Virus record (IMG/VR): IMGVR_UViG_3300045809_000027 | DNA from: a virus | Strand: one strand, 5' to 3' | DNA: 48,927 bases | Shown: positions 670 to 44,832 of the stretch, one piece after another | Layout: each line of letters opens with the position of its first letter | Position numbering within the stretch: position 1 is the stretch's first letter | Notes under the pieces: generated by a model | What the model saw: the letters and a program-made list of their open reading frames with translations, nothing else | Database searches by the model: none | Told to the model about the DNA's origin: nothing | Program-made: the position numbers and the translations under genes

Positions 670-1197
670 TTAATCATTCCTTTCTCTCGATTCTGCATCC
701 TTGACGATTGCTCTTGAATTGAAATTGTATCGATCGCAAACTGAGTTAAAAACTGCAATTTCTGATGAAATCTCGTCTACCACTTCCAACAACCAGAGTT
801 TTATTTCAGTTCTTTCATCGTGACTGATTTCTTCATTAGATATCGATAGTAAATCCCAAATTTCATATTTCTTTTCTACTTCAATTCTTTCAATTTCTTC
901 TTTGTCTTGACCAACCATTTTTGAAAGTGGATGCGCATCTCGACGTTTTCGATTTAATGGTTTTGGTGTATAGAACATCGCAGCAGCTACCTCGAAATCT
1001 GTTTCTGGATTTTGCAAGTAATCAGCAATTTCTACAACTCTTTCTAATCCCATCGTCCGTCTACCATTTAACATGTGACTTAGATTCTGCGCTGAGAAGT
1101 TCAGGTGATCAGCCATGACTCTTTGGTTCAAAGCCTGTTTGTCAACTTCCTGTCTAAAAATAGATGCGACTTGCTTCTCCATCGAAGAAACTCCCAT
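670..1197 (-). CDS. XRE-family HTH protein with unknown C-terminal domain
   Basis: QRVMADHLNFSAQNLSHMLNGRRTMGLERVVEIADYL is an HTH_3 motif. AAGGAG lies 6 nt upstream of the ATG at 1197 (internal Met of track ORF 670..1221). Confidence 0.6.
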   Translation of the reverse strand: MGVSSMEKQVASIFRQEVDKQALNQRVMADHLNFSAQNLSHMLNGRRTMGLERVVEIADYLQNPETDFEVAAAMFYTPKPLNRKRRDAHPLSKMVGQDKEEIERIEVEKKYEIWDLLSISNEEISHDERTEIKLWLLEVVDEISSEIAVFNSVCDRYNFNSRAIVKDAESRERND

Positions 1198-1262
1198 ATT
1201 AATCACTCCTTTTGTATTCAATTGTCATTTTTCATAGCAGTCATACTGCTATAAACTGTTTA

Positions 1263-1854: not shown

Positions 1855-2511
1855 ATGGACTTTGGATCTCGATTAAAAGAATTACGAGTTTCAAAAAAAC
1901 TTACTCAACAACAATTAGGAGATAAGATTCACGTTTCTAAAGTATCAATTTCTGGTTATGAACGTGGTGAACGTAGTCCTGATAGAGAAACTCTCACTTC
2001 TCTCGCAGATTTTTTTGATGTATCTACAGACTTTCTGTTAGGACGTGAACCTAAAGACATTAATAATTCTGTTGGTATCGGTGGAGTCATTCCAGAGGAC
2101 TATTCAATTCCTATTTTAGGTAGGATTGCAGCTTCATCGCCAGCTGGTTTAGTAAGCGATTACGAAGGAGAAATTTTCATACAGCCCTCTACTATAAAAA
2201 AGTATGGTAGACACGATATTTTCGCTTTACGAGTTTTAGGCGATTCAATGAATCGAATCATTCCTGATGGCGCAATCGCAGTAATCAGAAAAAGTTGCGA
2301 TTGGGAAGATGGAGATATCTGCGCTGTAACAATTAATGGAGATGACGCAACTCTCAAACAAGTTCATAAAACAAACCGTGGAATTAGATTTTCACCATTA
2401 ACTTACTCACGTTTCCACACACCATGGGAATATATTAAAGATGAGGACGATGTTGACGTTATCATCCATGGAGTTTTTTTATATGGCATAATACCAACTG
2501 ATAAAATGTAG
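1855..2511 (+). CDS. CI-like repressor, XRE HTH plus S24 (LexA-like) autopeptidase domain
   Basis: N-terminal KLTQQQLGDKIHVSKVSISGYERGERSP is an HTH. The C-terminal part has LGDSMNRIIPDGAIAVIRK (catalytic Ser) and ATLKQV (Lys). GAGGTG RBS. Confidence 0.9.
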   Translation: MDFGSRLKELRVSKKLTQQQLGDKIHVSKVSISGYERGERSPDRETLTSLADFFDVSTDFLLGREPKDINNSVGIGGVIPEDYSIPILGRIAASSPAGLVSDYEGEIFIQPSTIKKYGRHDIFALRVLGDSMNRIIPDGAIAVIRKSCDWEDGDICAVTINGDDATLKQVHKTNRGIRFSPLTYSRFHTPWEYIKDEDDVDVIIHGVFLYGIIPTDKM

Positions 2512-2526
2512 AATGGAGTGTTAAAT

Positions 2527-3597
2527 ATGGAAATGGAAAAATTTAAAGATGATTTAAAACAATTGGGAAAGCGCGTAATAAAGCTAAAAGACAATATTGG
2601 TACGGAAGAAGCAACTAAAACTTCACTCATTATGCCTTTTTTTGCAGCGTTGGGCTATGATCTATTCGATCCCACTGAATTTGTTCCAGAGTTCACTGCA
2701 GACGTGGGTATTAAAAAAGGTGAAAAAGTCGATTATGCTATTGTTATCGATAGTAAGCCTACTATTCTAATTGAAGCGAAGTCAATTAATGAAAAATTAA
2801 CAAAACATGATTCACAACTTTTTAGATACTTTGGGACTACAGAATCTAAATTCGGGATCTTAACGAATGGTCAAGAATACAAATTTTTTACTGATCTAGA
2901 TGAACCTAATAAAATGGATTTAGCACCCTTCCTTACAATAGATATAACAAATATTAAAGACAACCAAGTTCCTGAGTTAGCTAAGTTTCATAAGGAAAAT
3001 TTTGATGTTGACAAGATTACTAGTTCTGCCGCTGAGCTTAAATACTTGAGTCGTTTAAAGGATTATTTATCGTCTGAGCTTGACAATCCTAATGATGAGT
3101 TTATTAAGTTCCTTCTTGGTGAAATTTATGATGGGATGAAAACAAAACAGATCATTGATAAATTTAAACCAATTATAAAAAAAGGACTCAATCAGTTTAT
3201 CTCTGAAAAGGTAAATGATAAATTAAGCGCTGCATTAAAATCATCAGTCTCAGTAGATGAATTAGATACTAAATCAGAATCAAATACTACAGAAATTGAC
3301 GAACCTGAAGTTATTACAACACCTGAAGAACTAGAGTCATATACTATTGTCAAGGTGGTTTTAAAAGATGTAATTCCTCTTGATCGTTTATTCTATCGTG
3401 ATAATCGCAGTTACTTCAATATTTTATTAGATGATAATATTCGCAAGTGGATTCTAAGAGTACGATTCAATACTAATGGTATGAAGATTGAATTAAATGA
3501 TGAAAAACACTCTGTGTTTGAATTATCTCAACCGATGGATATTAATAATTACGCCAAAGAAATAATCACAATTGTAAATAGATTTAATCAGAAGTAG
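2527..3597 (+). CDS. HsdR_N-like (type I restriction enzyme R N-terminal domain) PD-(D/E)XK protein with unknown C-terminal half
   Basis: EEATKTSLIMPFFAALGYD...GEKVDYAIV...PTILIEAKS...HDSQLFRY...FGILTNGQEYKFF matches the HSDR_N_2 pattern (D...EAK core). GGAG lies 8 nt before the ATG at 2527. Starts 16 nt after the cI stop. Confidence 0.65.
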   Translation: MEMEKFKDDLKQLGKRVIKLKDNIGTEEATKTSLIMPFFAALGYDLFDPTEFVPEFTADVGIKKGEKVDYAIVIDSKPTILIEAKSINEKLTKHDSQLFRYFGTTESKFGILTNGQEYKFFTDLDEPNKMDLAPFLTIDITNIKDNQVPELAKFHKENFDVDKITSSAAELKYLSRLKDYLSSELDNPNDEFIKFLLGEIYDGMKTKQIIDKFKPIIKKGLNQFISEKVNDKLSAALKSSVSVDELDTKSESNTTEIDEPEVITTPEELESYTIVKVVLKDVIPLDRLFYRDNRSYFNILLDDNIRKWILRVRFNTNGMKIELNDEKHSVFELSQPMDINNYAKEIITIVNRFNQK

Positions 3598-4226: not shown

Positions 4227-5165
4227 ATGAAAAAACTAACGATTGTATTCTTACTCTGCTCTACCCTGCTCTTATCAGCATGTTCGGGCGATAAGAAGGC
4301 TGATACGACTGATTCGACTAGAACTAAACTTACAACGAGTAGTTCAACTCAGAAAAAAGAAGCGATAAGTTTGGATTCTATATTGGAAAAGTTCAAGGAT
4401 GATGGATTAACAGTTGATGAGGCTAAATCCATGAACAAGGAAGATTTCGGTATGGCTCCAATGTCTGCTAAAGAAGCGAAGATTTTTGGTATTCAAAAAG
4501 ATGATTCAGGCGACTACATGAATGGCAGAATTTTTCTGTTTGAAAAAGAAAAAGACCTAACTAAAACAAAAGACTATTATGATGAACTTGGTAAAGAGTC
4601 GGCAATGGCCTTCTCTTACACTGCAGCAAATGAAAAGAAATTAGTTCTAATGCAGTTCAATGGAGATTTACCTCAGGATCTAGTTCAAAAATATGCTGAC
4701 TCTGCTGAACTCGAGTTTACTCATTCTAATTTCACTAGTTCACATGATTCAACAAGTAACTCTAGCAAGCAAAGCAACGGTAACTTGACTAACAATACCA
4801 ATACACAATCTTCAGCGTCACAGGGCCTAGGCTATGGTGATCATAATGCGAACATTAGAGACGCAAGGTATCAAGAAGCTATTGAAAAAGGCGCTACTGA
4901 ACAAGAAGCTACTGATTTTGCAAACGGAAGCGAGCCAACATACGTTCCAAAAACTCCTGAACCATCTGCGGACGCACAAGGTTCTAGCGCTCAACAAGAT
5001 GCCGACACCTTATCTCTTACAGACTTTGTAAATAAGTACGGCATGTCACCTGCAGCTTGGAAAGTGCAAAATGGAATGTCAGAGGAAGAAGCGTTAAGAA
5101 GCACCCAAAATCTTACCTCTGGTGAGATGCAACTCGCCTTTTCGAAGTACGGAATTCAGAAGTAA
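4227..5165 (+). CDS. Lipoprotein (candidate superinfection-exclusion factor)
   Basis: Signal peptide MKKLTIVFLLCSTLLLSAC with lipobox LSAC. GGAGGA RBS. Contains S/T/N/Q-rich linkers. Confidence 0.75.
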   Translation: MKKLTIVFLLCSTLLLSACSGDKKADTTDSTRTKLTTSSSTQKKEAISLDSILEKFKDDGLTVDEAKSMNKEDFGMAPMSAKEAKIFGIQKDDSGDYMNGRIFLFEKEKDLTKTKDYYDELGKESAMAFSYTAANEKKLVLMQFNGDLPQDLVQKYADSAELEFTHSNFTSSHDSTSNSSKQSNGNLTNNTNTQSSASQGLGYGDHNANIRDARYQEAIEKGATEQEATDFANGSEPTYVPKTPEPSADAQGSSAQQDADTLSLTDFVNKYGMSPAAWKVQNGMSEEEALRSTQNLTSGEMQLAFSKYGIQK

Positions 5166-5259
5166 TTGATTTCCAATAACTCTGGTAAGTTTGTTTAACT
5201 GGTGGCTACTTCTACCTGCCATAATTGGGAGTTAAAATGATTTTTTTTGGAGGATGCAT

Positions 5260-6498
5260 ATGGCAACTTTGTTAGTGTTAGTAGGATTTTTTGGATTTAT
5301 TTTTGGTGTAGTAAGACTAATTAGAGCGTTTTTCAAGAAAACACCTAAGAAGCCAGAACTTTTAATTATTCTTGGTACTGTTATTGTATTTTTTGCTGGT
5401 GGAACTCTCTTAGAACCATCTGAACAAAAGTCAGCAGAAACAACCATAAGCAGCACACAGCAAAGTAAAACTGGAAACAAATCTTCATCCAGCTCTAGTG
5501 AAACAAAAAAAGAACAAGACAAATCTTCGGATGAAAAGAATAAGCAAAAACAAGCACTTATCTCTTTTAATGATCGTGTGAAGCAAGATAATACTAATCT
5601 TGCAAATATGGAATACAATGGCACGCAAACGATTGAAATTAATGATAATAATCCAACGTTTTCGGAAGATGATTTATCTTTGGCCAATAAAGCTTGGGAA
5701 AAATACGGGGACCTTGATCAACTAAACCGTGCTACTTCTGCCGAAGCTATGCTGAATCAATCATTGATGCCTGCAGCTAAACGTGGAGATATTTCTAATG
5801 TTAAGCCTACTGGCTGGCATAATAAGAAAATTGGTAAAGGATATCTCTATAATCGATCTCATTTGATTGGCTATACCCTTTCTGGTGAAAACGATAATTG
5901 GAAGAATCTGATCACAGGAACAGCACAGTTAAATAATCCAGAGATGCTTCGCTATGAAATGGATATAAAATATTATCTGGAAAAAAGTAAAGATAACTAT
6001 GTACGGTACTCAGTAACTCCTGTATTCCGTGGTGATGAATTACTTGCTCGCGGCGTTCATTTAATGGCTCAATCAATTAAATCTGACGACATTAAATTTA
6101 ATGTTTATATCTTCAATGTACAAGATGATGTAACTTTGAATTATTTAGATGGAACAAGCCAAACTAAAAGCGAGATTCTTGCTGCTCAACAAAAAGAAGA
6201 AGAAAGAAAAAATGCTGAAATTAAAGCTCAACAAGCTGCTGAAGAACAACAGCGAATTGAAGCTCAAAAGCAAGCTGAGGCAGCTCAAAGCGCAGCGAAT
6301 GAACAACAAGCAGCCGCTACTCAAACAAATGGTCCAGAATACGTTGATGCCAACGGGAACGGATTAATCAAAGGTTCTAACAACGGAATATATCACGTTC
6401 CAGGGAGCAGATATTATGATAAAACAACTAATCCAGCAGCTTTGTTTAAAACAGTTGATGAAGCTGAAAGAGCCGGATATCGCGCTCCTAGAAATTAG
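5260..6498 (+). CDS. Membrane-anchored DNA/RNA non-specific endonuclease (EndA / DNA-entry nuclease family)
   Basis: Two N-terminal hydrophobic helices. [31 protein letters not shown] is the nuclease core. Followed by a Q/A/E-rich coiled-coil linker and a C-terminal tail, YHVPGSRYY...[21 protein letters not shown] lies 7 nt before the ATG at 5260. Confidence 0.75.
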
Positions 6499-6714: not shown

Positions 6715-6720
6715 CTCTAC

Positions 6721-6762
6721 CCTCCCCGCCTGGCGCCGCCGGTTCGATTCCGGTTCGGGGAA
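6721..6762 (+). repeat. GC-rich tRNA acceptor/T-arm minihelix-like element (E2)
   Basis: TCCCCG (6723-6728) pairs with CGGGGA (6756-6761). Inside it, GCCGG-TTCGATT-CCGGT (6738-6754) is a canonical T-arm. No D or anticodon arm and no CCA. Sits 33 nt upstream of the ATPase start. Confidence 0.75.
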
Positions 6763-6794
6763 TAAAAAATGCAGTGAAGTGAAAGGAAATTTAT

Positions 6795-8561
6795 ATGGCT
6801 TGGAAGAATCCACAACATTATTATATTTCAAATGCAACTTTTGAGAATTTTAGAATCATCAACAATATCAATTTTAAACCAGCGAAACATTTAAATATTT
6901 TAGCGGGAAAAAACGGGACTGCAAAATCAACGATTCTTGGTATGATTGCACAAGGCTTCTCATTTAATCCAAAAATTATTTATGACATATCAAAAACAGA
7001 GTATGAAACTATTAATTCGAAAACAAACCCCACCCCTGCTGAAATAGAAAAGATGCAACTATTCGAGAGTATTACTACTTATAATGAGAAAAATTTTGAA
7101 TCCCGTGCAGATGAACACTTCAAGCTTTCGACAGCAGATGTTAAAAGGAAAAGGCATGCCTCTATTACCATGAAAGCAAATCAGAACAATAAGCCAGACA
7201 TCAATTACTTAATTGAAAGCAATGATTATGCTGATCGTCGAAATCCTAGATTAGTTACCAGAAGAATAAACAATATAGATGAAAGTTCTACGGATACTTC
7301 ATCTTCAAATATTATATTTCCAGTGATATATCTTGGCTTAAAAAGAGTTAATCCGATTGTTCAAGAACGAGGACTAAAGGAAAAAAACTATGGATTACCT
7401 GAATCCGATATTGAAGAAATTTTTGATTTATATCAATCAATTTTATTAAAAAAATACAATTCTAATTTTATTGGAATTAGTAATAATAACGATAAGAGGA
7501 CTGCTGCCTTTATTCCTAAAGAAAGATCCATCGAAATGATTTCCTCTGGAGAGGATAACATTGGACAAATCTTACTGGCATTATATTCATTTAAAAAACT
7601 TAAAAAAAATTATGATGAATATTCTGGTGGAATTTTGTTAATTGATGAAATTGACGTCACTTTATATCCAGCAGCACAAATAAGGTTATTAAAAATACTA
7701 TATAGCAAGGCAAAAGAATTTGGTATCCAAATTTTTTGCACTACACATTCACTTGAACTAATAGAGTACGCAATGGACTTAAAATTAAGTCCAAATAATA
7801 GAAATTTAATTGAGTTGTTTAATCTAAATATCGAACATCGTGATCTAGGCATTATGCCTATCACCAACATAAATACGATAAAAAATCAGTTTTTTGTCGC
7901 AGCCGAAAAGGAAATGAGTAGTGAAAAAATTCCTGTATACTTTGAAGATAAAGAAGCAATCTATGTTTTTAAAGGGCTAGTTACTAAGAAGAAAATTCTG
8001 TCATATTTAAATATTCAAAACAGTTTTTCTCTCGGTTGCACAGAATTATTAAAATTGCACAAATTTAAAATCCCTGAATTCAACGCTAGATCAATTGTCT
8101 GTTTGGATGGAGACAATGTCGCACCAAAAAATATTAAAAATTATATAAATCTACCATCTGAAAATAAATATCCTCCAGAACGATTTGTTTTTGAAATACT
8201 TGACGATAATAATTCTGAGTACTGGGATAATACCAAAAATTATTCCCACGAAATATTTATGAATAATCCACATTACGACATTATCAAACGTATCTTGCGT
8301 GATACATACGCAAATGATGATGGCCCATATAACATTGTCCATTCTGATTATTATAAAAAGAAACCTCGTGAAGTTTGGAAAATGTGGTTTAAACACGAAC
8401 AATTAAATTGGAAAGGCCCTAACAATCCCGTTAAGTTTTGGAAAAGTAAAAACAATCTATCTCCAAGTCTCGAAAAATTCTATGAGGATTTAAAGAAATC
8501 AATCGAATATGTTGCAAATAAAAGTGGTATTGACATTAGCGATATTGAACATCTATTGTAA
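6795..8561 (+). CDS. ABC/AAA_15-21-type ATPase fused to a Toprim/DUF4435-like domain (OLD / AbiL / PARIS-like)
   Basis: Walker A GKNGTAKST (aa 38-46), SSGE signature, Walker B GGILLIDEIDV, H-loop CTTHS. The C-terminal part has VYFED(E384)KEAIYVF and CLD(438)GD(440)N, spaced 54 aa apart like a Toprim E...DxD. The Toprim assignment is inferred, not searched. Confidence 0.65.
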   Translation: MAWKNPQHYYISNATFENFRIINNINFKPAKHLNILAGKNGTAKSTILGMIAQGFSFNPKIIYDISKTEYETINSKTNPTPAEIEKMQLFESITTYNEKNFESRADEHFKLSTADVKRKRHASITMKANQNNKPDINYLIESNDYADRRNPRLVTRRINNIDESSTDTSSSNIIFPVIYLGLKRVNPIVQERGLKEKNYGLPESDIEEIFDLYQSILLKKYNSNFIGISNNNDKRTAAFIPKERSIEMISSGEDNIGQILLALYSFKKLKKNYDEYSGGILLIDEIDVTLYPAAQIRLLKILYSKAKEFGIQIFCTTHSLELIEYAMDLKLSPNNRNLIELFNLNIEHRDLGIMPITNINTIKNQFFVAAEKEMSSEKIPVYFEDKEAIYVFKGLVTKKKILSYLNIQNSFSLGCTELLKLHKFKIPEFNARSIVCLDGDNVAPKNIKNYINLPSENKYPPERFVFEILDDNNSEYWDNTKNYSHEIFMNNPHYDIIKRILRDTYANDDGPYNIVHSDYYKKKPREVWKMWFKHEQLNWKGPNNPVKFWKSKNNLSPSLEKFYEDLKKSIEYVANKSGIDISDIEHLL

Positions 8562-8616
8562 TAGATTATTGGCCAAAAGACATTTAATTTGATAATATGG
8601 AATTGAGGTGATCATA

Positions 8617-9492
8617 ATGCCACACACAAAATCCCCGCTTAGGTATCCAGGTGGGAAAACTCAGTTATGGAAGTTTGTAGATTCGACAATTAAGCAGAAC
8701 AATATAATCGCTCCAATCTATTGCGAGCCTTTTGCGGGTGGGGCCGGGGTGGCCATTGAATTACTTCTTATTAAAAAAGTTGAAGAAATTATCATAAATG
8801 ATTTTGACCCCGCTATTTATAATTTTTGGAGAGCTATTATAAATGATACAGATAAATTTATTCAGTTAATCAATACTACTGAAATTTCTATCGAAGAATG
8901 GCATAATCAAAAAGAAATATATAGTAATTGCGGCAGAGTCATAGGCTCATTAGAAGGTGCATTTGCTACCTTCTTTCTGAATCGGACAAACGTTAGCGGT
9001 ATTATTTCTGGCGGTCCCATTGGTGGACGCAATCAAAATGGAAAATACAAAATTGACTGCCGTTTTAATAAGTTAAATCTAATAAAAAAAATCAGAAATA
9101 TTGCTGAGCAAAAAGACAAAATTCATTTGTACAATGAAGATGCTGCAAATCTTGTTGAATTACTAAAAAAAGAGTATCCAAAAGATCGTCTTTTCATTTT
9201 CTTTGATCCCCCATACTACGTTCAAGGACAATCCTTGTATCTATCTTTTTATAAAAAATATCAACATCAACTTATTAGAGATAAAATATTAAGTATGGAT
9301 GATTATTATTGGATTTTAACTTATGACAAGGCTCCACAAATTTCTGAACTCTATTCTAAAGCTGATAAAGGGTTTCAATACTCTTTAAATTATTCAGCTA
9401 ATAAGAAGCGCGTGGCTAATGAATATATTTTTGCCAGTTCTGTAACACGCCTACTTTCGACTAATAAAGTTGATCTTCAACCAATTACTTAA
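8617..9492 (+). CDS. D12-class N6-adenine DNA methyltransferase (Dam family)
   Basis: PLRYPGGK near the N-terminus, FAGGAG (AdoMet-binding), and FFDPPYY (motif IV DPPY). GAGGTG lies 6 nt before the ATG at 8617. Confidence 0.85.
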   Translation: MPHTKSPLRYPGGKTQLWKFVDSTIKQNNIIAPIYCEPFAGGAGVAIELLLIKKVEEIIINDFDPAIYNFWRAIINDTDKFIQLINTTEISIEEWHNQKEIYSNCGRVIGSLEGAFATFFLNRTNVSGIISGGPIGGRNQNGKYKIDCRFNKLNLIKKIRNIAEQKDKIHLYNEDAANLVELLKKEYPKDRLFIFFDPPYYVQGQSLYLSFYKKYQHQLIRDKILSMDDYYWILTYDKAPQISELYSKADKGFQYSLNYSANKKRVANEYIFASSVTRLLSTNKVDLQPIT

Positions 9493-9497
9493 AGATT

Positions 9498-9517
9498 AGC
9501 CTTCGGGCTTTTCTTTT
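9498..9517 (+). terminator. Weak intrinsic terminator after the methyltransferase
   Basis: AGCC-TTCG-GGCT hairpin (4 bp, UUCG loop) followed by TTTCTTTT. Confidence 0.35.
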
Positions 9518-9582: not shown

Positions 9583-10734
9583 ATGAATGGACATGTAAGA
9601 AAAATCGGCAACAAATGGCACTATACCATCGAAATGGCAAAAGTTGGCGGTAAACGTCAGCGTATACAAAAAGGTGGATGGAATACAAAAACTGAGGCAC
9701 AAGAACATCTAAGAGAAGCGCTGAACGAATATAAACGTGGCGGTAAAGTGGATTTAACGGATATTAGTGTTTCTGATTATTTTGATTACTGGTTTGAAAA
9801 TTATGTTGAGAAGAAACTTAAGTATAATACGCAAAAAAACTATAAAAATGTAATTGATAAATACGTGAAGCCAGAAATTGGGAAATACCTACTTCAATCA
9901 ATAGGCCCTGCGAAATTGCAGGAGCTTGTAAATAAACTACCTGAAGGATTTAATAAACAGCTCTCAAAACATTCTGTAGAGATTATCTTCACTGTCCTAA
10001 AAGGTGCATTTCGAAGAGCAGTCTTCCCTTATCAACTAATTAATAGCAATCCAATGGACTATGTCGAAATGCCGGCATTCCCTTCTAAACCAAAACAGTC
10101 AAGAGATGATATGAAAATTATAACAATGGATCAGTACCTTAAAATTTTAGATAACACCCCTATTTCGGATTCTTTTCACATTCCTCTTGTCATTGCTTTC
10201 CACACAGGGTTGCGTCGCGGCGAAGTTTGTGGGATGACCTGGGACAATGTGTCATTTGAAGATCAGACTTTAACTATCACTAAAATTATGTTACAAGACA
10301 AGAATGGGATACAAATAGGAACACCCAAAACGCAGGCTAGTTATCGAACCATCAGTATTGATGACATGCTGCTTGAAGAGTTAAAAAGCCATAAAAAAAG
10401 ACAATTAGAAAACAGAATGAGATATGGAAAGTTTTATTATGAAAGTTCATTTGTATGTACTAAAGAAAACGGACAGCCTGTCACACCAAATTCAATAAAA
10501 TGGTCAGCAAGTAAAATCAAGAAGAATTTAGGTATTAACTTTAACTTCCATTCTTTGAGACACACGCATGCAACAATGCTCTTAGAGGATGGAGTAAAAC
10601 CGAAAATTGTTCAAGAAAGACTCGGCCATTCGAGGATTTCTACTACTATGGATAAATATGTACATGTTACTAAGAAAATGAGAACTGAAGCCGTTGATAT
10701 TTTCGCCGAACGTCTTCGCCGTTCAATGAACTAA
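9583..10734 (+). CDS. int: Tyrosine site-specific integrase
   Basis: N-terminal SAM-like domain. The catalytic region has GLRRGEVCGMTW, HSLRHTHATMLL and LGHSRISTTMDKYVHV (R..HxxR..Y). Confidence 0.93.
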   Translation: MNGHVRKIGNKWHYTIEMAKVGGKRQRIQKGGWNTKTEAQEHLREALNEYKRGGKVDLTDISVSDYFDYWFENYVEKKLKYNTQKNYKNVIDKYVKPEIGKYLLQSIGPAKLQELVNKLPEGFNKQLSKHSVEIIFTVLKGAFRRAVFPYQLINSNPMDYVEMPAFPSKPKQSRDDMKIITMDQYLKILDNTPISDSFHIPLVIAFHTGLRRGEVCGMTWDNVSFEDQTLTITKIMLQDKNGIQIGTPKTQASYRTISIDDMLLEELKSHKKRQLENRMRYGKFYYESSFVCTKENGQPVTPNSIKWSASKIKKNLGINFNFHSLRHTHATMLLEDGVKPKIVQERLGHSRISTTMDKYVHVTKKMRTEAVDIFAERLRRSMN

Positions 10735-10755
10735 ATTCGCTCTTTTTCATTAAAA

Positions 10756-10800
10756 ATGTTCGCCCAAATAAAACATCGGGCGAACATTGGGCGAATTTTT
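10756..10800 (+). terminator. int terminator
   Basis: 10-bp stem ATGTTCGCCC/GGGCGAACAT (10756-10765 and 10778-10787), followed by TGGGCGAATTTTT. Confidence 0.7.
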
Positions 10801-11093
10801 ATGAAAATCACAATCATTCATAGCGGATATTTTCAAACAAACCCTTATTTCTTCTTGGGTTCATCCTCATCCATTTTCAGAACGGCCATGAATGCCTCTT
10901 ATCTTATTTCCTGATTCACAAAGGTTTAAGAGTTCCTCAAGAGGTTTAATAATACCTAGACAAATATACTTCATCAGGTAACAAATATCAAATTCAAGCT
11001 CTAACGATATTGGTGATTACTCATGCAGTTTTTAGCTTTGGGCGGCGATATGACGAACAATCAAATTTAATAAATTGTTCCCCTTCACAACCG

Positions 11094-11117
11094 GAACATA
11101 TGTTTGTATGATATAAA
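11094..11117 (+). promoter_or_regulatory. LexA-box-like motif plus extended -10 promoter of the 11141-12352 cassette
   Basis: GAACATATGTTTGT (11094-11107) lies immediately upstream of TGATATAAA (11109-11117). RBS GGGGTGA precedes the ATG at 11141. Confidence 0.5.
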
Positions 11118-11140
11118 TATCTTATTCTAGGGGTGATCGT

Positions 11141-11395
11141 ATGAAATCGTTAAATGGTATTGTAAGTAGCGTAAAAATTCTTAAGTATTCTGAACGTCCC
11201 CTCGTCTATTTTAAGCTTGATGATACTAGCTGTTTGATTGCTGGTCACTCGTTGAATTTTTTTGCAGATGTAGAGGATGGAATGCGGATCGCTGTTGCTG
11301 GCGAGTACAATAGTAGGAAACAGTTCATTGTGCGGAAATATAGTGTGATCGGAGAAACTAGAATCATGTTAGAGTTAAATCGATTGTCAGTTTAA
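11141..11395 (+). CDS. Small protein, 84 aa, unknown (possibly beta-rich/OB-like)
   Basis: ORF with RBS and its own promoter. No motif recognised. Confidence 0.55.
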   Translation: MKSLNGIVSSVKILKYSERPLVYFKLDDTSCLIAGHSLNFFADVEDGMRIAVAGEYNSRKQFIVRKYSVIGETRIMLELNRLSV

Positions 11396-11449: not shown

Positions 11450-12352
11450 GTGGTAAAAGTGTTGGCAAAGTACGAATTTTCTGTAAGATATGCAGGAGAA
11501 GCTTTGGTTGATGGAAGGATTCCTATCAGAGACTTGGCTCCTTCTTTGTTAGCTCTTTCTGAAGCCTTTCAAGAAATACAACAGATCACTCATCCATATC
11601 AACAACCTGTTTCACTAGATATTAAGGCTTCTGAAAAAGGATCGTTTATTGTTGATTTAATATTAGCAAATGGAAACGATTTGTTGTCGAGTGCTATTGA
11701 TTTACTAAATGGAAATGAATCAGAAGCTTTAAGAAATTTAATTGAACTGGCTACTGGTTTCACAGCAGCAGTTATTTTCATTACCAAAGTAGGTAAAAAG
11801 AAAATAAAAAGAAAAAAAGAATTGCCTGAAGGAGAAGTAAAGATTACTTTGGACGATGAAACTTCAATTACTGTTTCCAAAGATGTTTTTGAAGCATATA
11901 GAAATGTTGAATTTAGAAAAACGACTAAGGAATTTGTTCGGCCGTTAGAATCAGAAGGTATTGAAGCAATTGAATTTTCAACTGAGAAAAATGCTTCTGT
12001 GTCAATATCTAAGCAAGATGTCTCAGCTTTTGATGTTCCAGAGATTGAAGATAAAGAATTCCCTTCAACTGAAAGTACTGTATATTTGCAAATTATCAAT
12101 ATTTCATTTGCGAATGAAAAATGGAAACTGACTGATGGTAACAAACCTTTTTGGGCAAAAATTGAAGATGAAGAATTTCTCACTTCTATTGAAAATAATC
12201 AACAACAATTCGGTGCTAGTGATGCTCTAAAAGTTATACTGGAGACACAGCAAAAGTTTACTGACAATGGTTTGAAAACGGAGTATTCTGTAAAAAAAGT
12301 AATCGAACACATTAAAGGGCCCAAACAATTAAAATTGGATTTTGAAGAATAA
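11450..12352 (+). CDS. 300-aa protein, unknown; central hydrophobic segment followed by a poly-Lys stretch
   Basis: GTG start preceded by AAAGAAAGG. LIELATGFTAAVIFITKVGKKKIKRKK suggests a membrane anchor or amphipathic hinge. Followed by a strong terminator. Confidence 0.6.
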   Translation: MVKVLAKYEFSVRYAGEALVDGRIPIRDLAPSLLALSEAFQEIQQITHPYQQPVSLDIKASEKGSFIVDLILANGNDLLSSAIDLLNGNESEALRNLIELATGFTAAVIFITKVGKKKIKRKKELPEGEVKITLDDETSITVSKDVFEAYRNVEFRKTTKEFVRPLESEGIEAIEFSTEKNASVSISKQDVSAFDVPEIEDKEFPSTESTVYLQIINISFANEKWKLTDGNKPFWAKIEDEEFLTSIENNQQQFGASDALKVILETQQKFTDNGLKTEYSVKKVIEHIKGPKQLKLDFEE

Positions 12353-12828: not shown

Positions 12829-13836
12829 TCACTTAATATCGTGATACCAACGTGTTTCGTAGAAGTCTTGATGACCTCCACTTACATCACCTTTAGCGTC
12901 ATTTGTAGCACGTGTCATCACAATGACTGACTTACCACTAAAATGCTTAGCATTGAAATTCACATCATAACCGACATTCCCAGTCGTCCGATAAGCAGCA
13001 TTCACATCTGGTCTTGCTACTACAGGTGCTTTCTGGCGTGCCAATTCTTTGCCAGTTGTCCGATCAATAATAAATACATATTGATACTTGTAATTAGCGA
13101 TATGCCACCCACGCGCCTTCAAGGTGTTCCCGATTCTCCCCCATTGATCAACATGAGCATGGTTTCCTTTGCCATCGTTCATTACAGAATATCCTGATCC
13201 TGCGGTAGTTGGATCTACAGGTTTGCTTGGAGTCGGTGCAGGTTTGTTCTCGTTTGATTCAAAACCATACTTCACATCATGTGCAAATTGCGCTTGTGAG
13301 ACACCGTGACTTGCTAAGTAGCCATACGGGTCCGTATGATCGCCCCACCAATTCGTAGAAATGTATTGGTGACTGATGACCCCTTTGCCGCCTACTGGAC
13401 TGTCTACAGTAAGAGGAATATTAAACCGTTTCGCACTGTCACGAATTAATTCAATGTAAACTTTATAGTTCTGTTTAAAGAGCGCTGGATTGGGCGTTGC
13501 TTGCAATTCAATTTGTACTGGCGAATTCGCATTGGCATAAGAGCCGCCTCCGTATTGCACATAGCCGGGTTCACCAACTTGGTAGACAATACCGTCACCA
13601 ACAATATAGCTAGTGTAGGCATTCATCCAATTGCGCTTCATAAAGGTAGCTTCGTTACGTCCTGTTGCGCTAGGATTTGCAGTATCGTGCGCCACAATAT
13701 AATTTGGATTTGCTCTAATTGGACTGCCTTCATTCGCCCCTAAATTGAACTCGTTATTGATCGTGTAAGCAAACCCATTAATAGGCAATAAAAAAAGAGC
13801 CAGTAAAAGGCTCAGTAACGTAATTTTCTTTTTCAT
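12829..13836 (-). CDS. Endolysin: N-acetylmuramoyl-L-alanine amidase (Amidase_2/PGRP-like) with N-terminal Sec signal peptide and C-terminal wall-binding domain
   Basis: AGGAGG RBS before the ATG at 13836. MKKKITLLSLLLALFLLPINGFA is a signal peptide. NYIVAHDTANPSATGRNEATFM and VQIELQ are amidase_2-like motifs. Confidence 0.8.
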   Translation of the reverse strand: MKKKITLLSLLLALFLLPINGFAYTINNEFNLGANEGSPIRANPNYIVAHDTANPSATGRNEATFMKRNWMNAYTSYIVGDGIVYQVGEPGYVQYGGGSYANANSPVQIELQATPNPALFKQNYKVYIELIRDSAKRFNIPLTVDSPVGGKGVISHQYISTNWWGDHTDPYGYLASHGVSQAQFAHDVKYGFESNENKPAPTPSKPVDPTTAGSGYSVMNDGKGNHAHVDQWGRIGNTLKARGWHIANYKYQYVFIIDRTTGKELARQKAPVVARPDVNAAYRTTGNVGYDVNFNAKHFSGKSVIVMTRATNDAKGDVSGGHQDFYETRWYHDIK

Positions 13837-13846
13837 GTGATTCCTC

Positions 13847-14044
13847 CTATTTTTTCGAATTGTATGCTGAGACACCTGTAACTACTCCTAAAAAAGTAGC
13901 TACAGCATTAATTGTTAGCACAGTCATATCCGCGCCACCCCAACCGTATGCCTTTCCAAGTGTGCCAACTAAAACAGATGCAGCTGGCAACACTGTGAGA
14001 ACCGCCCATTTAATAATTTGGTAATACTTGTCCGGTAAAATCAT
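13847..14044 (-). CDS. Holin (phage_holin_1-like, two TM segments)
   Basis: MILPDKYYQIIKWAVLTVLPAASVLVGTLGKAYGWGGADMTVLTINAVATFLGVVTGVSAYNSKK. Internal Met of track ORF 13847..14122. Lies directly upstream of the lysin. Confidence 0.75.
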   Translation of the reverse strand: MILPDKYYQIIKWAVLTVLPAASVLVGTLGKAYGWGGADMTVLTINAVATFLGVVTGVSAYNSKK

Positions 14045-43773: not shown

Positions 43774-44241
43774 TTACATGAACTGCACACAGCCATCTTC
43801 ACTTGCTAATTCAAATGCTTTTTTAAAGTTCAAATACGTTTCCATGTCATAGTCATCCAACTGCTCTCTAGCGATTTTTTCTAAATCTTTAAAATCTTTA
43901 GCCAATTTTTTTGATACAACGGGACCGATAAATCCTTCGCAGTCGGAGAACATTATTAACTCGAATAATTGTGAGTTCGACGCCATTTTTTCCAATTTTT
44001 CTCTGAAACGGTTGTAATGCGAGTAAGCTCCTGCACTAAAACTAAATGAATCGTCAGAAGAATACACACCAGTGACTAGACCTTGTGTCCGTCCTTTAAA
44101 GTGCTCTTCTGTATAGTCTAGTGTCGGTTGATTGATTTCTACTAGTTTATCCCAATCTACTAAACAACCATCCTCATCTCTTTTTGGATTATCAACTTTC
44201 ATCATTTTTTTATAAGCTTCTACATCTAAACCCATTATCAT
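43774..44241 (-). CDS. Early protein, unknown function
   Basis: ORF in the operon. The start may be the third codon (ATG at 44235). Confidence 0.5.
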   Translation of the reverse strand: MIMGLDVEAYKKMMKVDNPKRDEDGCLVDWDKLVEINQPTLDYTEEHFKGRTQGLVTGVYSSDDSFSFSAGAYSHYNRFREKLEKMASNSQLFELIMFSDCEGFIGPVVSKKLAKDFKDLEKIAREQLDDYDMETYLNFKKAFELASEDGCVQFM

Positions 44242-44313
44242 TCCTTCTTTCTTTTTCTCTGCTAATGCCCCATGTAAGTGAGCTTTGTTCCCTGAATTTC
44301 TCCAATAGCGTAT

Positions 44314-44559
44314 CTATTTATTTGAAATAAAAAAACTTTCTGCCTGTTCATCGTCACCGTACTTTTCCGCCATCATAACTTCAATTTCATTCTTGTAAAC
44401 AGACATCACTCTATTGATTCCCCAAAGAGGATGACTCTCGCGCCATTTTTTATACTCTTGCGTTTTCTCAAGTTCTTGAATAAGTTGATGTTCTATATCA
44501 TCCAATTCGTCCTTTTGGGTTTGCCATTTTTCAGCTAGTACTCTTTTTTCTTGTTTCAT
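44314..44559 (-). CDS. Early protein, unknown function
   Basis: ORF in the operon. Confidence 0.45.
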   Translation of the reverse strand: MKQEKRVLAEKWQTQKDELDDIEHQLIQELEKTQEYKKWRESHPLWGINRVMSVYKNEIEVMMAEKYGDDEQAESFFISNK

Positions 44560-44599
44560 ATCAAATCTCCTTCCCTATGCAAATGCTCCAGTTAGCGGA

Positions 44600-44797
44600 C
44601 TATCCAATAAATTTCTCTTTCTTATATCCAACTTCGATCAGAAACTCTTCTCGCTGATTCAACGCTGTTCGATAACTCGTTTTCGATTCAATACTCTTAG
44701 CTATTTGTTGTGCTTTATCAATGCTGGTATAGCAGAACAGTTTTCTATCTTCGTCTGCTACGATTGCTGCAATCTTATCGTGATATATGCGATACAT
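44600..44797 (-). CDS. Early protein, unknown function
   Basis: ORF in the operon. Confidence 0.45.
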   Translation of the reverse strand: MYRIYHDKIAAIVADEDRKLFCYTSIDKAQQIAKSIESKTSYRTALNQREEFLIEVGYKKEKFIG

Positions 44798-44832
44798 AGA
44801 ATCACCTCGAATTTAGTTTGATGCCATAACTC

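Follow-up and report, generated by a model that had tools for sequence, protein, structure and literature searches.

OLD nucleases are among the most widespread anti-phage effectors, and how they are restrained in their own host and what it is that they sense are still open questions. A simple handle on this is offered by an OLD-type family whose genes are nearly always coupled to one for a DNA methylase; a member of this family is analyzed here. The window, as we call the whole stretch of viral DNA under study, is IMG/VR record IMGVR_UViG_3300045809_000027, 48,927 nt in length; in it a gene for a 588-residue protein, a putative ABC ATPase-Toprim nuclease, is followed by a gene for a D12-class DNA methyltransferase. 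The original prediction, made from the sequence of the window, proposed that the two form a new defense pair with a logic like that of restriction-modification (R-M) systems. Do the two genes act as one system, and if so, what does the methylase do for the nuclease? Our best explanation as a whole is a mobile two-gene, methylation-coupled anti-phage cassette with an R-M-like mechanism, to which we assign a probability of about 0.5. That the pair is a functional defense unit of this composition is highly probable; the R-M-like logic, taken by itself, we would put at a little under even odds.

The ATPase gene is almost always accompanied by a methylase gene

The ATPase profile retrieved 80 loci from IMG/VR, of which 76 were testable for their neighbors. 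A methylase gene of the same subfamily directly adjoins the ATPase gene in 74 of the 76, lying downstream on the same strand in 73 of these; dereplication at 90%, 70% and 50% identity leaves 43, 27 and 14 clusters, of which 41, 25 and 12, respectively, show adjacency. Among loci from species-representative genomes the two genes stand side by side, in either order, in 17 of 21 testable cases, and these 17 span Bacillota, Actinomycetota, Pseudomonadota and Fusobacteriota; at an eighteenth locus (L010) the methylase gene is about 1.8 kb from the ATPase gene, inside a pair of the PD-lambda-5 defense system. Intergenic gaps within the pair measure 17-55 nt. Across phyla the pairing is close to obligatory, as the dedicated partnership originally proposed would have it, and an ATPase that seldom occurs without its methylase is the pattern expected if the effector were harmful alone.

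The cassette is distributed over Streptococcus and Lactococcus prophages or prophage remnants and Enterococcus contigs, and both Pseudomonas aeruginosa and Listeria marthii have homologues of the ATPase. The pair lies between repressor and integrase in Lactococcus prophages and in a prophage remnant of Streptococcus oralis, Listeria marthii has it as a chromosomal island by itself, equipped with a promoter-like sequence, and Vibrio phage ValB1MD-2 provides another individual context. In Citrobacter phage phiNP, an unannotated open reading frame (ORF) of the same methylase subfamily (5.5e-70; L001 5760-6647, equivalent to OR565852.1 ~43917-44804) directly follows an annotated 'AAA family ATPase'; the GenBank record of phiNP (OR565852.1) misses this methylase gene.

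The two genes are also transferred together. Positions 6720-9517 of the window recur in a second Enterococcus prophage (L044, GCA_016909115.1) with 99.9% identity over 2798 bp; this prophage has another integrase and other upstream genes, and its homology with the window stops exactly at the two edges. Because the nearly identical segment lies in an unrelated prophage, the ATPase and methylase genes move as one cassette. The AT-richness noticed originally is confirmed by a GC content of 31.7% for the cassette (ATPase gene 30.2%, methylase gene 32.9%) against 39.2% for the late region and 38.0% for the whole window, and by composition the two cassette genes are foreign to the phage. The cassette is a lysogenic-conversion 'moron' of a temperate Enterococcus phage, located between repressor and integrase. 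Both window proteins are found in RefSeq, from Enterococcus (WP_137618336.1 and WP_137618335.1), the methylase being WP_137618335.1, 'DNA adenine methylase'.

An OLD-like architecture is predicted for the 588-residue protein

The ORFs and motifs stand exactly where the original prediction had placed them. In the ATPase head these are GKNGTAKST (residues 38-46), SSGE (250-253), LLIDEID (281-287) and TTHS (316-319); further on come YFEDKEA (382-388), with E384, and LDGD (437-440), with D438 and D440, which gives a spacing of 54 aa between the glutamate and the DxD motif, compared with 55 in the Burkholderia OLD protein BpOLD. The best PDB sequence matches of the head are PtuA, OLD and AriA, with further matches to SMC_N, RecF and Rad50, and in PADLOC its relatives are GajA, PtuA, AriA, AbiLi and HEC-04; by sequence and by fold, the nearest relatives of the head are thus ATPases of defense systems. 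The NCBIfam MAD3 model matches the window ATPase weakly. The protein family is phrog_3940 ('unknown function'; 7e-99, full length), and no model in Pfam, PADLOC 2.0 or NCBIfam (2026) is specific to the ATPase-Toprim protein or to the pair. As PADLOC models recognize the methylase alone, inventories of prophage defense probably under-count the cassette.

Foldseek with the full-length model (predicted local distance difference test score, pLDDT, 88.6) gives GajA as the top match (8sm3_A, 655 aligned columns), together with TsOLD (6p74, 634 columns). The C-terminal part of the protein is the more divergent one, and several lines bear on its fold. The AlphaFold2 (AF2) model of the isolated C-terminal domain (pLDDT 93.4) has four strands alternating with helices, which is the Toprim topology, followed by an all-helical domain. 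Its top three matches among 350,000 PDB chains are 6njx, 6njw and 6nk8, the C-terminal Toprim-plus-helical regions of the Xanthomonas (XccOLD) and Burkholderia (BpOLD) OLD proteins, at weak scores (E 0.07-0.33, template modeling score, TM, about 0.34), and its second match among viral models (BFVD) is an RloB-like protein. The sole profile that detects the domain is the TOPRIM region of HEC-04, which matches the window protein at 5.8e-4 (PADLOC) and, independently, 13 of 26 relatives, with 2.2e-5 as the best value. HEC-04, a single-gene ATPase-TOPRIM defense found inside Hma (helicase-methylase-ATPase) loci and apparently toxic on induction, has been validated by experiment, and its Walker A mutant and its E319/D375/D377 mutant each lose defense (Payne et al., 2024). 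With hhalign, the family profile and P2 Old aligned at the Walker B region alone, P2 Old being too distant as a single sequence.

Conservation within the family points in the same direction. In 27 members, down to ~27% identity, the invariant residues are K44, D284/E285, H318, E384, D385, D438, D440, L453-P454 and K529, and they include all four that had been singled out from the window alone (K44, E384, D438 and D440). Since E384, D385, D438, D440 and K529 are invariant among members so diverged, they are not a chance pattern. In BpOLD the helical domain contains a catalytic lysine, K562, and the helical domain of the window protein, with K529, is by analogy a possible counterpart of the OLD domain that supplies this residue. 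Each line of evidence on the fold is modest and all are concordant, so that the 588-residue protein is best read as an ATPase-Toprim enzyme of OLD-like type in which the nuclease module has diverged strongly; the ABC ATPase with a Toprim-like C-terminus that was originally proposed is thus supported by the OLD and HEC-04 matches and by the AF2 topology, with modest statistics. The fusion of both halves in one polypeptide, pointed out in the original prediction, is no novelty, being the layout that defines OLD classes 1-3 and HEC-04.

The C-terminal domain family comprises 337 representative clusters at E <= 1e-10 and 599 at E <= 1e-3; among the 150 best matches listed, full-length proteins of ~500-650 aa carry the domain C-terminally, and shorter ones look like fragments. 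Streptococcus phage Javan645 (L039 1693-4346), Javan640 and phiGBSVK-D have ABC ATPases of a sister family, 579 aa in length ('Prophage Lp2 protein 4'). The C-terminus of the Javan645-type proteins differs in sequence yet has an E-D ... D-x-D pattern, and their genes are followed by a methylase of the PD-Lambda-5_B subfamily and an integrase. The PADLOC mad3 model matches one of these sister ATPases.

A methylase subfamily shared with PD-lambda-5

The second gene begins, at the ATG chosen by the gene callers, exactly 55 nt past the ATPase stop (an alternative GTG lies at 8608), on the same strand and with the integrase gene next, which confirms the coordinates first given. Its product carries PLRYPGGK and FFDPPYY and matches Pfam MethyltransfD12 (4.3e-21), PADLOC MTase_II (7.8e-94) and, over its full length, PADLOC PD-Lambda-5_B (PDLC04018, 2e-111). 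The SAM-binding EPFAGGAG and catalytic DPPY motifs are invariant across the methylase subfamily; methylase catalysis is therefore under selection, and the product, a member of the PD-lambda-5_B subfamily, is predicted to be active as an N6-adenine DNA methyltransferase. Methylases labeled 'partial' in two Enterococcus assemblies were considered as decay products and rejected, the truncations being masked runs of N.

The PD-Lambda-5_B match bears on the claim that the pair was without described precedent: we found no specific model or description of the pair, and in this the claim stood, but the methylase makes the locus a variant of PD-lambda-5. That system was recovered by functional selection from a prophage of E. 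coli ECOR7, consists of a ParB/HEPN protein (PD-Lambda-5_A) and a methyltransferase, and gives broad protection (Vassallo et al., 2022). Its cloning required a delta-mrr host (Vassallo et al., 2022), which implies that the PD-lambda-5 methylase methylates DNA in vivo.

In a methylase-centered set of the 80 best viral loci, a first pass assigned 24 to an ATPase-Toprim partner, 29 to PD-Lambda-5_A and 27 to neither; nine of the last group are too near a contig end to be tested, and of the other 18, several that are close relatives adjoin divergent A-like genes. The close relatives within the set nearly all adjoin either an ATPase-Toprim gene or a PD-Lambda-5_A-like gene. Methylases of the two partner groups are intermixed (mean identity 0.44 and 0.42 within the groups, 0.41 between them), and those of L137 and L140 are 92% identical and have different effectors. 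Two three-gene composites, L010 3171-7643 from Mycobacterium sp. 1081908.1 and L123 3474-8065 from IMG/VR, place an ATPase-Toprim gene beside a complete PD-lambda-5 pair, with A proteins that score 6.4e-132 and 4.5e-86, respectively, each plus a methylase; the ATPase frame of L010 is broken into a pair of ORFs, suggestive of a frameshift. Genuine PD-Lambda-5_A proteins score 4e-90 to 6e-132 on their model; neither the 25 PADLOC families that score best with the full window ATPase nor those for its C-terminal region include PD-Lambda-5_A. At the level of sequence and gene neighborhood, these comparisons establish that the same methylase subfamily is used interchangeably with PD-Lambda-5_A or with the ATPase-Toprim protein.

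In Vibrio phage 10N.286.54.E5_PE002 (L040 3501-5760), a methylase of the same subfamily is convergent with a gene for a 459-aa protein, adjoined by HerA-like and P-loop genes. The 459-aa protein has no match in Pfam or PADLOC and no similarity to PD-Lambda-5_A or the ATPase, and it may be a third type of effector.

These neighborhoods also bear on whether the two genes of the window might be independent hitch-hikers, namely an orphan Dam-like methylase directed against host restriction and an OLD- or HEC-04-like exclusion gene that works by itself. Orphan methylases are frequent in phages, members of this subfamily lie among structural genes of Helicobacter prophages with no recognized partner, and HEC-04 and class 1 OLD proteins act alone. 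Chance association is nevertheless hard to reconcile with ~97% adjacency across phyla and in both gene orders, with a pair in a non-prophage chromosomal island, or with the transfer of the exact two-gene unit between prophages, and several loci that seemed to have the methylase alone proved to have a PD-Lambda-5_A-like neighbor. We regard this explanation as very unlikely, and the orphan anti-restriction methylase that had been offered as the alternative to a defense pair fails for the close relatives, nearly all of which have a linked effector gene.

A proposed methylation-coupled mechanism and its main competitor

In the R-M-like mechanism that we favor, the methylase would mark the DNA of the lysogen at a recognition motif and would probably act in addition as the DNA-recognition or anchoring subunit, the part that Mod plays in Type III R-M; a methylase with this second role would explain why unrelated effectors are swapped on a nearly unchanged methylase. 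The ATPase-Toprim protein would engage DNA through ATP binding or hydrolysis, and its two-metal Toprim site (E384, D438 and D440, with K529) would nick or cleave unmethylated incoming DNA, the methylated self being spared. R-M-like logic of this kind accounts for the selection on catalysis, for the rarity of the effector without the methylase and for the ease of effector exchange. By analogy, it would also be in line with the apparent toxicity of HEC-04, the protein with the matching TOPRIM region.

A different explanation, which agrees with the evidence nearly as well as R-M-like logic and which we consider quite possible though short of probable, is abortive infection (Abi) of the guard type, a 'compact RM+Abi' comparable to PrrC-EcoprrI and PARIS. 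The methylase would restrain the ATPase-Toprim protein or be monitored by it, and a phage anti-restriction factor acting on the methylase or imitating its substrate, such as an Ocr-like DNA mimic or an Stp-like peptide, would free the nuclease to destroy tRNA or bulk DNA and so abort the infection; methylation would then be a bonus or a bait, not a self mark that the nuclease reads. OLD-type ABC ATPases sense anti-restriction proteins, as PARIS does Ocr, and tRNA is cut by P2 Old and by AriB. Effectors with no relation to one another, among them a HEPN protein of the RNase type, swap on the same methylase, which would be natural if the effectors bind it, and solo members of the family have intact active sites. 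PD-lambda-5 itself was among 21 candidates chosen after R-M-escape clones had been removed, was termed a highly compacted prophage 'RM+Abi' system and performed best against T-even phages (Vassallo et al., 2022). Against guarding stand the invariant catalytic and SAM-binding motifs of the methylase, which show that catalysis is selected and which a pure bait would not need, and the near absence of the ATPase without the methylase, which fits protection from self-cleavage as well.

Several observations weigh against R-M-like restriction as the mechanism of the cassette. The filter, label and phage preference just described for PD-lambda-5 lean toward guard or abortive logic. Three exceptions to the linkage among the genome loci (L014, L021 and L024) are shorter, more distant proteins that stand solo, with no methylase, and keep all catalytic residues, from which it follows that cells can tolerate the nuclease with no cognate methylase present. 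Co-evolution of nuclease and methylase is only moderate, the mirror-tree comparison of ATPase and methylase identities giving a Pearson coefficient of 0.66 and a Spearman coefficient of 0.29, weak in rank terms. Characterized OLD-type effectors are often triggered by phage anti-defense proteins, and some cut tRNA, not DNA. The statistics of the predicted Toprim fold are modest (Foldseek E 0.03-0.3, TM about 0.34): the fold search proposed for the C-terminus did return OLD regions as its top PDB matches, at weak E values, whereas the C-terminal region (210-240 residues) on its own matched nothing in Pfam, its profile found a lone spurious match among PDB sequences (RPC6, E 1.2), and the C-terminal regions of 26 relatives gave two weak Toprim_2 matches in Pfam (0.017) amid noise.

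The strongest form of the R-M-like explanation would be a new kind of R-M, in which the ABC-ATPase-driven Toprim protein is the restriction subunit and the D12 methylase provides both plug-in specificity and the source of self/non-self discrimination; we consider it possible but less likely than not. Were it true, the window protein would be the first Toprim-based restriction enzyme and represent a fifth OLD nuclease class, and PD-lambda-5 and the window cassette would be two faces of one 'methylase hub plus interchangeable effector' architecture. PD-lambda-5, whose mechanism is undescribed, is recast by these results as a member of a modular family with one methylase subfamily and interchangeable effectors. 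An ATP-dependent, methylation-sensitive Toprim nuclease, if the protein is one, could be of interest to biotechnology.

Genomic setting of the cassette

The window is a circularly permuted temperate phage, and the features of the cassette and its surroundings are listed in Table 1. A run of accessory genes lies 3' of the repressor, with the integrase as its last member, and the late genes occupy the minus strand, where they begin with replication genes near 48.4 kb and reach as far as an amidase at 12829-13875. Megablast against GenBank phages, with the region and the structural genes as queries, gave no close relative. The terminator scan had no hit on the hairpin at the right edge of the cassette, the stem being too short for the scan.

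Table 1. Features of the cassette and its surroundings in the window.
Feature	Position	Strand	Evidence
Cro-like gene	670-1221	-	
cI-like HTH/S24 repressor	1855-2511	+	
Mobile two-gene cassette (minihelix, ATPase-Toprim and methylase genes, terminator-like hairpin)	6720..9517	+	Homology edges vs L044, GC
tRNA-like minihelix, left edge of cassette (acceptor-like 6-bp stem, T-arm-like 5-bp stem, loop UUCGAUU)	6723..6761	+	Sequence, fold
ATPase-Toprim gene, 588 aa	6795-8561	+	ORF list
Predicted ABC-type ATPase head, residues 1-345 (Walker A K44, signature SSGE 250-253, Walker B D284/E285, H-loop H318)	6795..7829	+	Pfam AAA_21 7.4e-12, AAA_15
Predicted Toprim-like core, residues ~375-460 (beta1 end E384-D385, beta3 end D438-G-D440, beta4 then L453-P454)	7917..8174	+	AF2, Foldseek
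Predicted C-terminal helical domain, residues ~461-588 (invariant K529; R525 in core family)	8175..8558	+	All-helical secondary structure
D12-class N6-adenine DNA methyltransferase, PD-Lambda-5_B family, 291 aa	8617..9492	+	PADLOC, Pfam
Short hairpin AGCC-UUCG-GGCU then T-run; likely terminator, right edge of cassette	9498..9517	+	Direct sequence reading
Phage tyrosine integrase (context, outside cassette)	9583..10734	+	Pfam Phage_integrase 5.5e-28

The tRNA-like minihelix, which the original prediction called a notable coincidence in view of tRNA cleavage by PARIS effectors, is indeed present at the left edge, but a link with it does not hold as a feature of the system. ARAGORN calls no tRNA and Rfam no family at this position, the folding energy is no better than that of shuffled sequence (z = 0.46), L046, a relative with 88% identity, has a degenerate copy, and the cassettes of Listeria, Lactococcus and Streptococcus lack the element on their upstream side. 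A conserved role as a functional part or target mimic is rejected on these grounds, and the minihelix is probably a relic of the 3' end of a tRNA gene, an att-site scar at the cassette boundary. Between the two nearly identical cassette copies, two of only three substitutions in 2798 bp fall in the 5-bp stem (window 6723-6761 compared with L044 2929-2967), and both keep pairing (G-U to G-C; C-G to U-G); this may reflect either a recombination hot spot at the cassette edge or a structural constraint on the stem.

Further along the window, similarity to Enterococcus prophages of two genomes breaks off at 10888, within the stretch ~10735-11140, and gives way to another integrase-bearing element; from this break in homology the attP core probably lies near 10888. 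Partial Listeria phage records match 10641-10900 with 73% identity. An 84-aa ORF at 11141-11395 without matches precedes a gene for a 300-aa protein at 11450-12352 (+), which matches PDC-S42, a PADLOC candidate single-gene defense (4.4e-76), and phrog_3243 (unknown function). Standing between the likely attP region and the endolysin, this gene is a second putative defense moron of the phage. Directly 3' of the cI-like repressor, a gene for a 359-aa protein at 2518-3597 (+) carries HSDR_N, the N-terminal nuclease domain of the Type I restriction enzyme R subunit (9.9e-16), and matches phrog_4225 'endonuclease' (5e-140); it may be a further defense or exclusion gene of the lysogeny module. The stretch 4227-6498 (+) encodes first a lipoprotein-like protein of 312 aa and then a 414-aa protein that has a hydrophobic segment at its N-terminus and a DNA/RNA non-specific endonuclease domain, Endonuclea_NS_2 (6.6e-36); for a phage lysogeny module, a nuclease that is membrane-anchored or secreted makes an unusual passenger.

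Palindrome usage was considered as a guide to the methylation motif and proved uninformative, as CGCG alone is low in the window: it is the most under-represented 4-bp palindrome (29 observed against 58 expected, O/E 0.5), and the others are unremarkable. The shortage of CGCG may reflect a restriction system of the host.

The setting is also what makes a function outside defense the least probable explanation of all, far down the scale. An SMC/RecF-like ATPase and a Dam-like methylase could in principle form a module of phage DNA metabolism or epigenetic control, serving methylation-directed repair, replication control or packaging; the SMC_N, RecF and Rad50 matches of the head agree with this, and Dam-directed processes exist. 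The cassette, however, occupies a moron hotspot in the lysogeny module beside defense-like genes (PDC-S42 and the HSDR_N nuclease), is foreign in composition and has a sporadic, mobile distribution; its closest functional relatives are all defense proteins, and the subfamily of the partner methylase is that of a validated defense system.

Comparison with known systems

The literature that we searched contains no description of an ATPase-Toprim and methylase pair; an earlier mention may exist in Krishnan et al. (2020; NAR 48:10045). The layout predicted for the window protein is that of the OLD family (P2 Old, GajA, the effectors of retron I-B, AriA/AriB), with an N-terminal ABC ATPase, a C-terminal Toprim with E and DxD, and a helical domain with a conserved lysine, and OLD nucleases are, like the window gene, phage-borne defense genes; sequence similarity is limited to the ATPase motifs, and the Toprim of the window protein is highly divergent. 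The four OLD classes are told apart by neighborhood: class 1 is solo, class 2 accompanies a UvrD-like helicase (Gabija), class 3 a retron reverse transcriptase together with an ncRNA, and class 4 is split into AriA and AriB (PARIS). In none of them is the conserved neighbor a methylase, whereas the window family has a D12 methylase and is in effect a fifth, methylase-linked neighborhood class of OLD nucleases.

HEC-04 shares the ABC-ATPase-TOPRIM fusion with the window protein but acts alone. Its whole-protein match (1.1e-11, 42 bits) is weaker than the generic GajA and PtuA matches, so that by sequence the window protein probably belongs to a family related to HEC-04 and not to the same one; no helicase or Hma genes lie near the cassette, whose context is a lysogeny module. 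PARIS has a separate DUF4435/Toprim protein, AriB, beside AriA, while in the window the AriA profile covers the ATPase head alone (6.1e-14) and the next gene is a methylase; C-terminal scans of the relatives gave an AriB- or AbiLii-like signal in one relative alone (0.012). The UvrD-like helicase GajB, which adjoins GajA in Gabija, has no equivalent at the window locus.

Type II R-M systems have a cognate endonuclease of a known restriction endonuclease family, whereas no restriction endonuclease model is among the 25 best PADLOC families for the window ATPase. Type III and Type I R-M, like the window pair, combine a methylase and an ATP-dependent nuclease subunit in one operon, and effector exchange on a constant methylase would resemble the reliance of Res on Mod for sequence recognition. 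Their motor is a superfamily 2 helicase and their nuclease PD-(D/E)XK, in contrast to the ABC ATPase, Toprim and small D12 (alpha-class) methylase of the window. PrrC-EcoprrI, RloC and the MADS and Hma systems also tie an ABC ATPase-effector genetically to a DNA-modification module; the PrrC/RloC effector is a HEPN-type anticodon nuclease and MADS/Hma are many-gene systems, whereas the window cassette has the minimal two genes and a Toprim effector. PD-lambda-5 is closest in organization, being a prophage-borne operon of two adjacent genes with the same methylase subfamily, and differs in its A component, a ParB(DUF262)/HEPN protein of ~460 aa that is unrelated to the 588-aa ABC ATPase-Toprim protein. 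On these sequence relationships, the window cassette is best seen as a PD-lambda-5-like module with a swapped effector, a sibling of PD-lambda-5.

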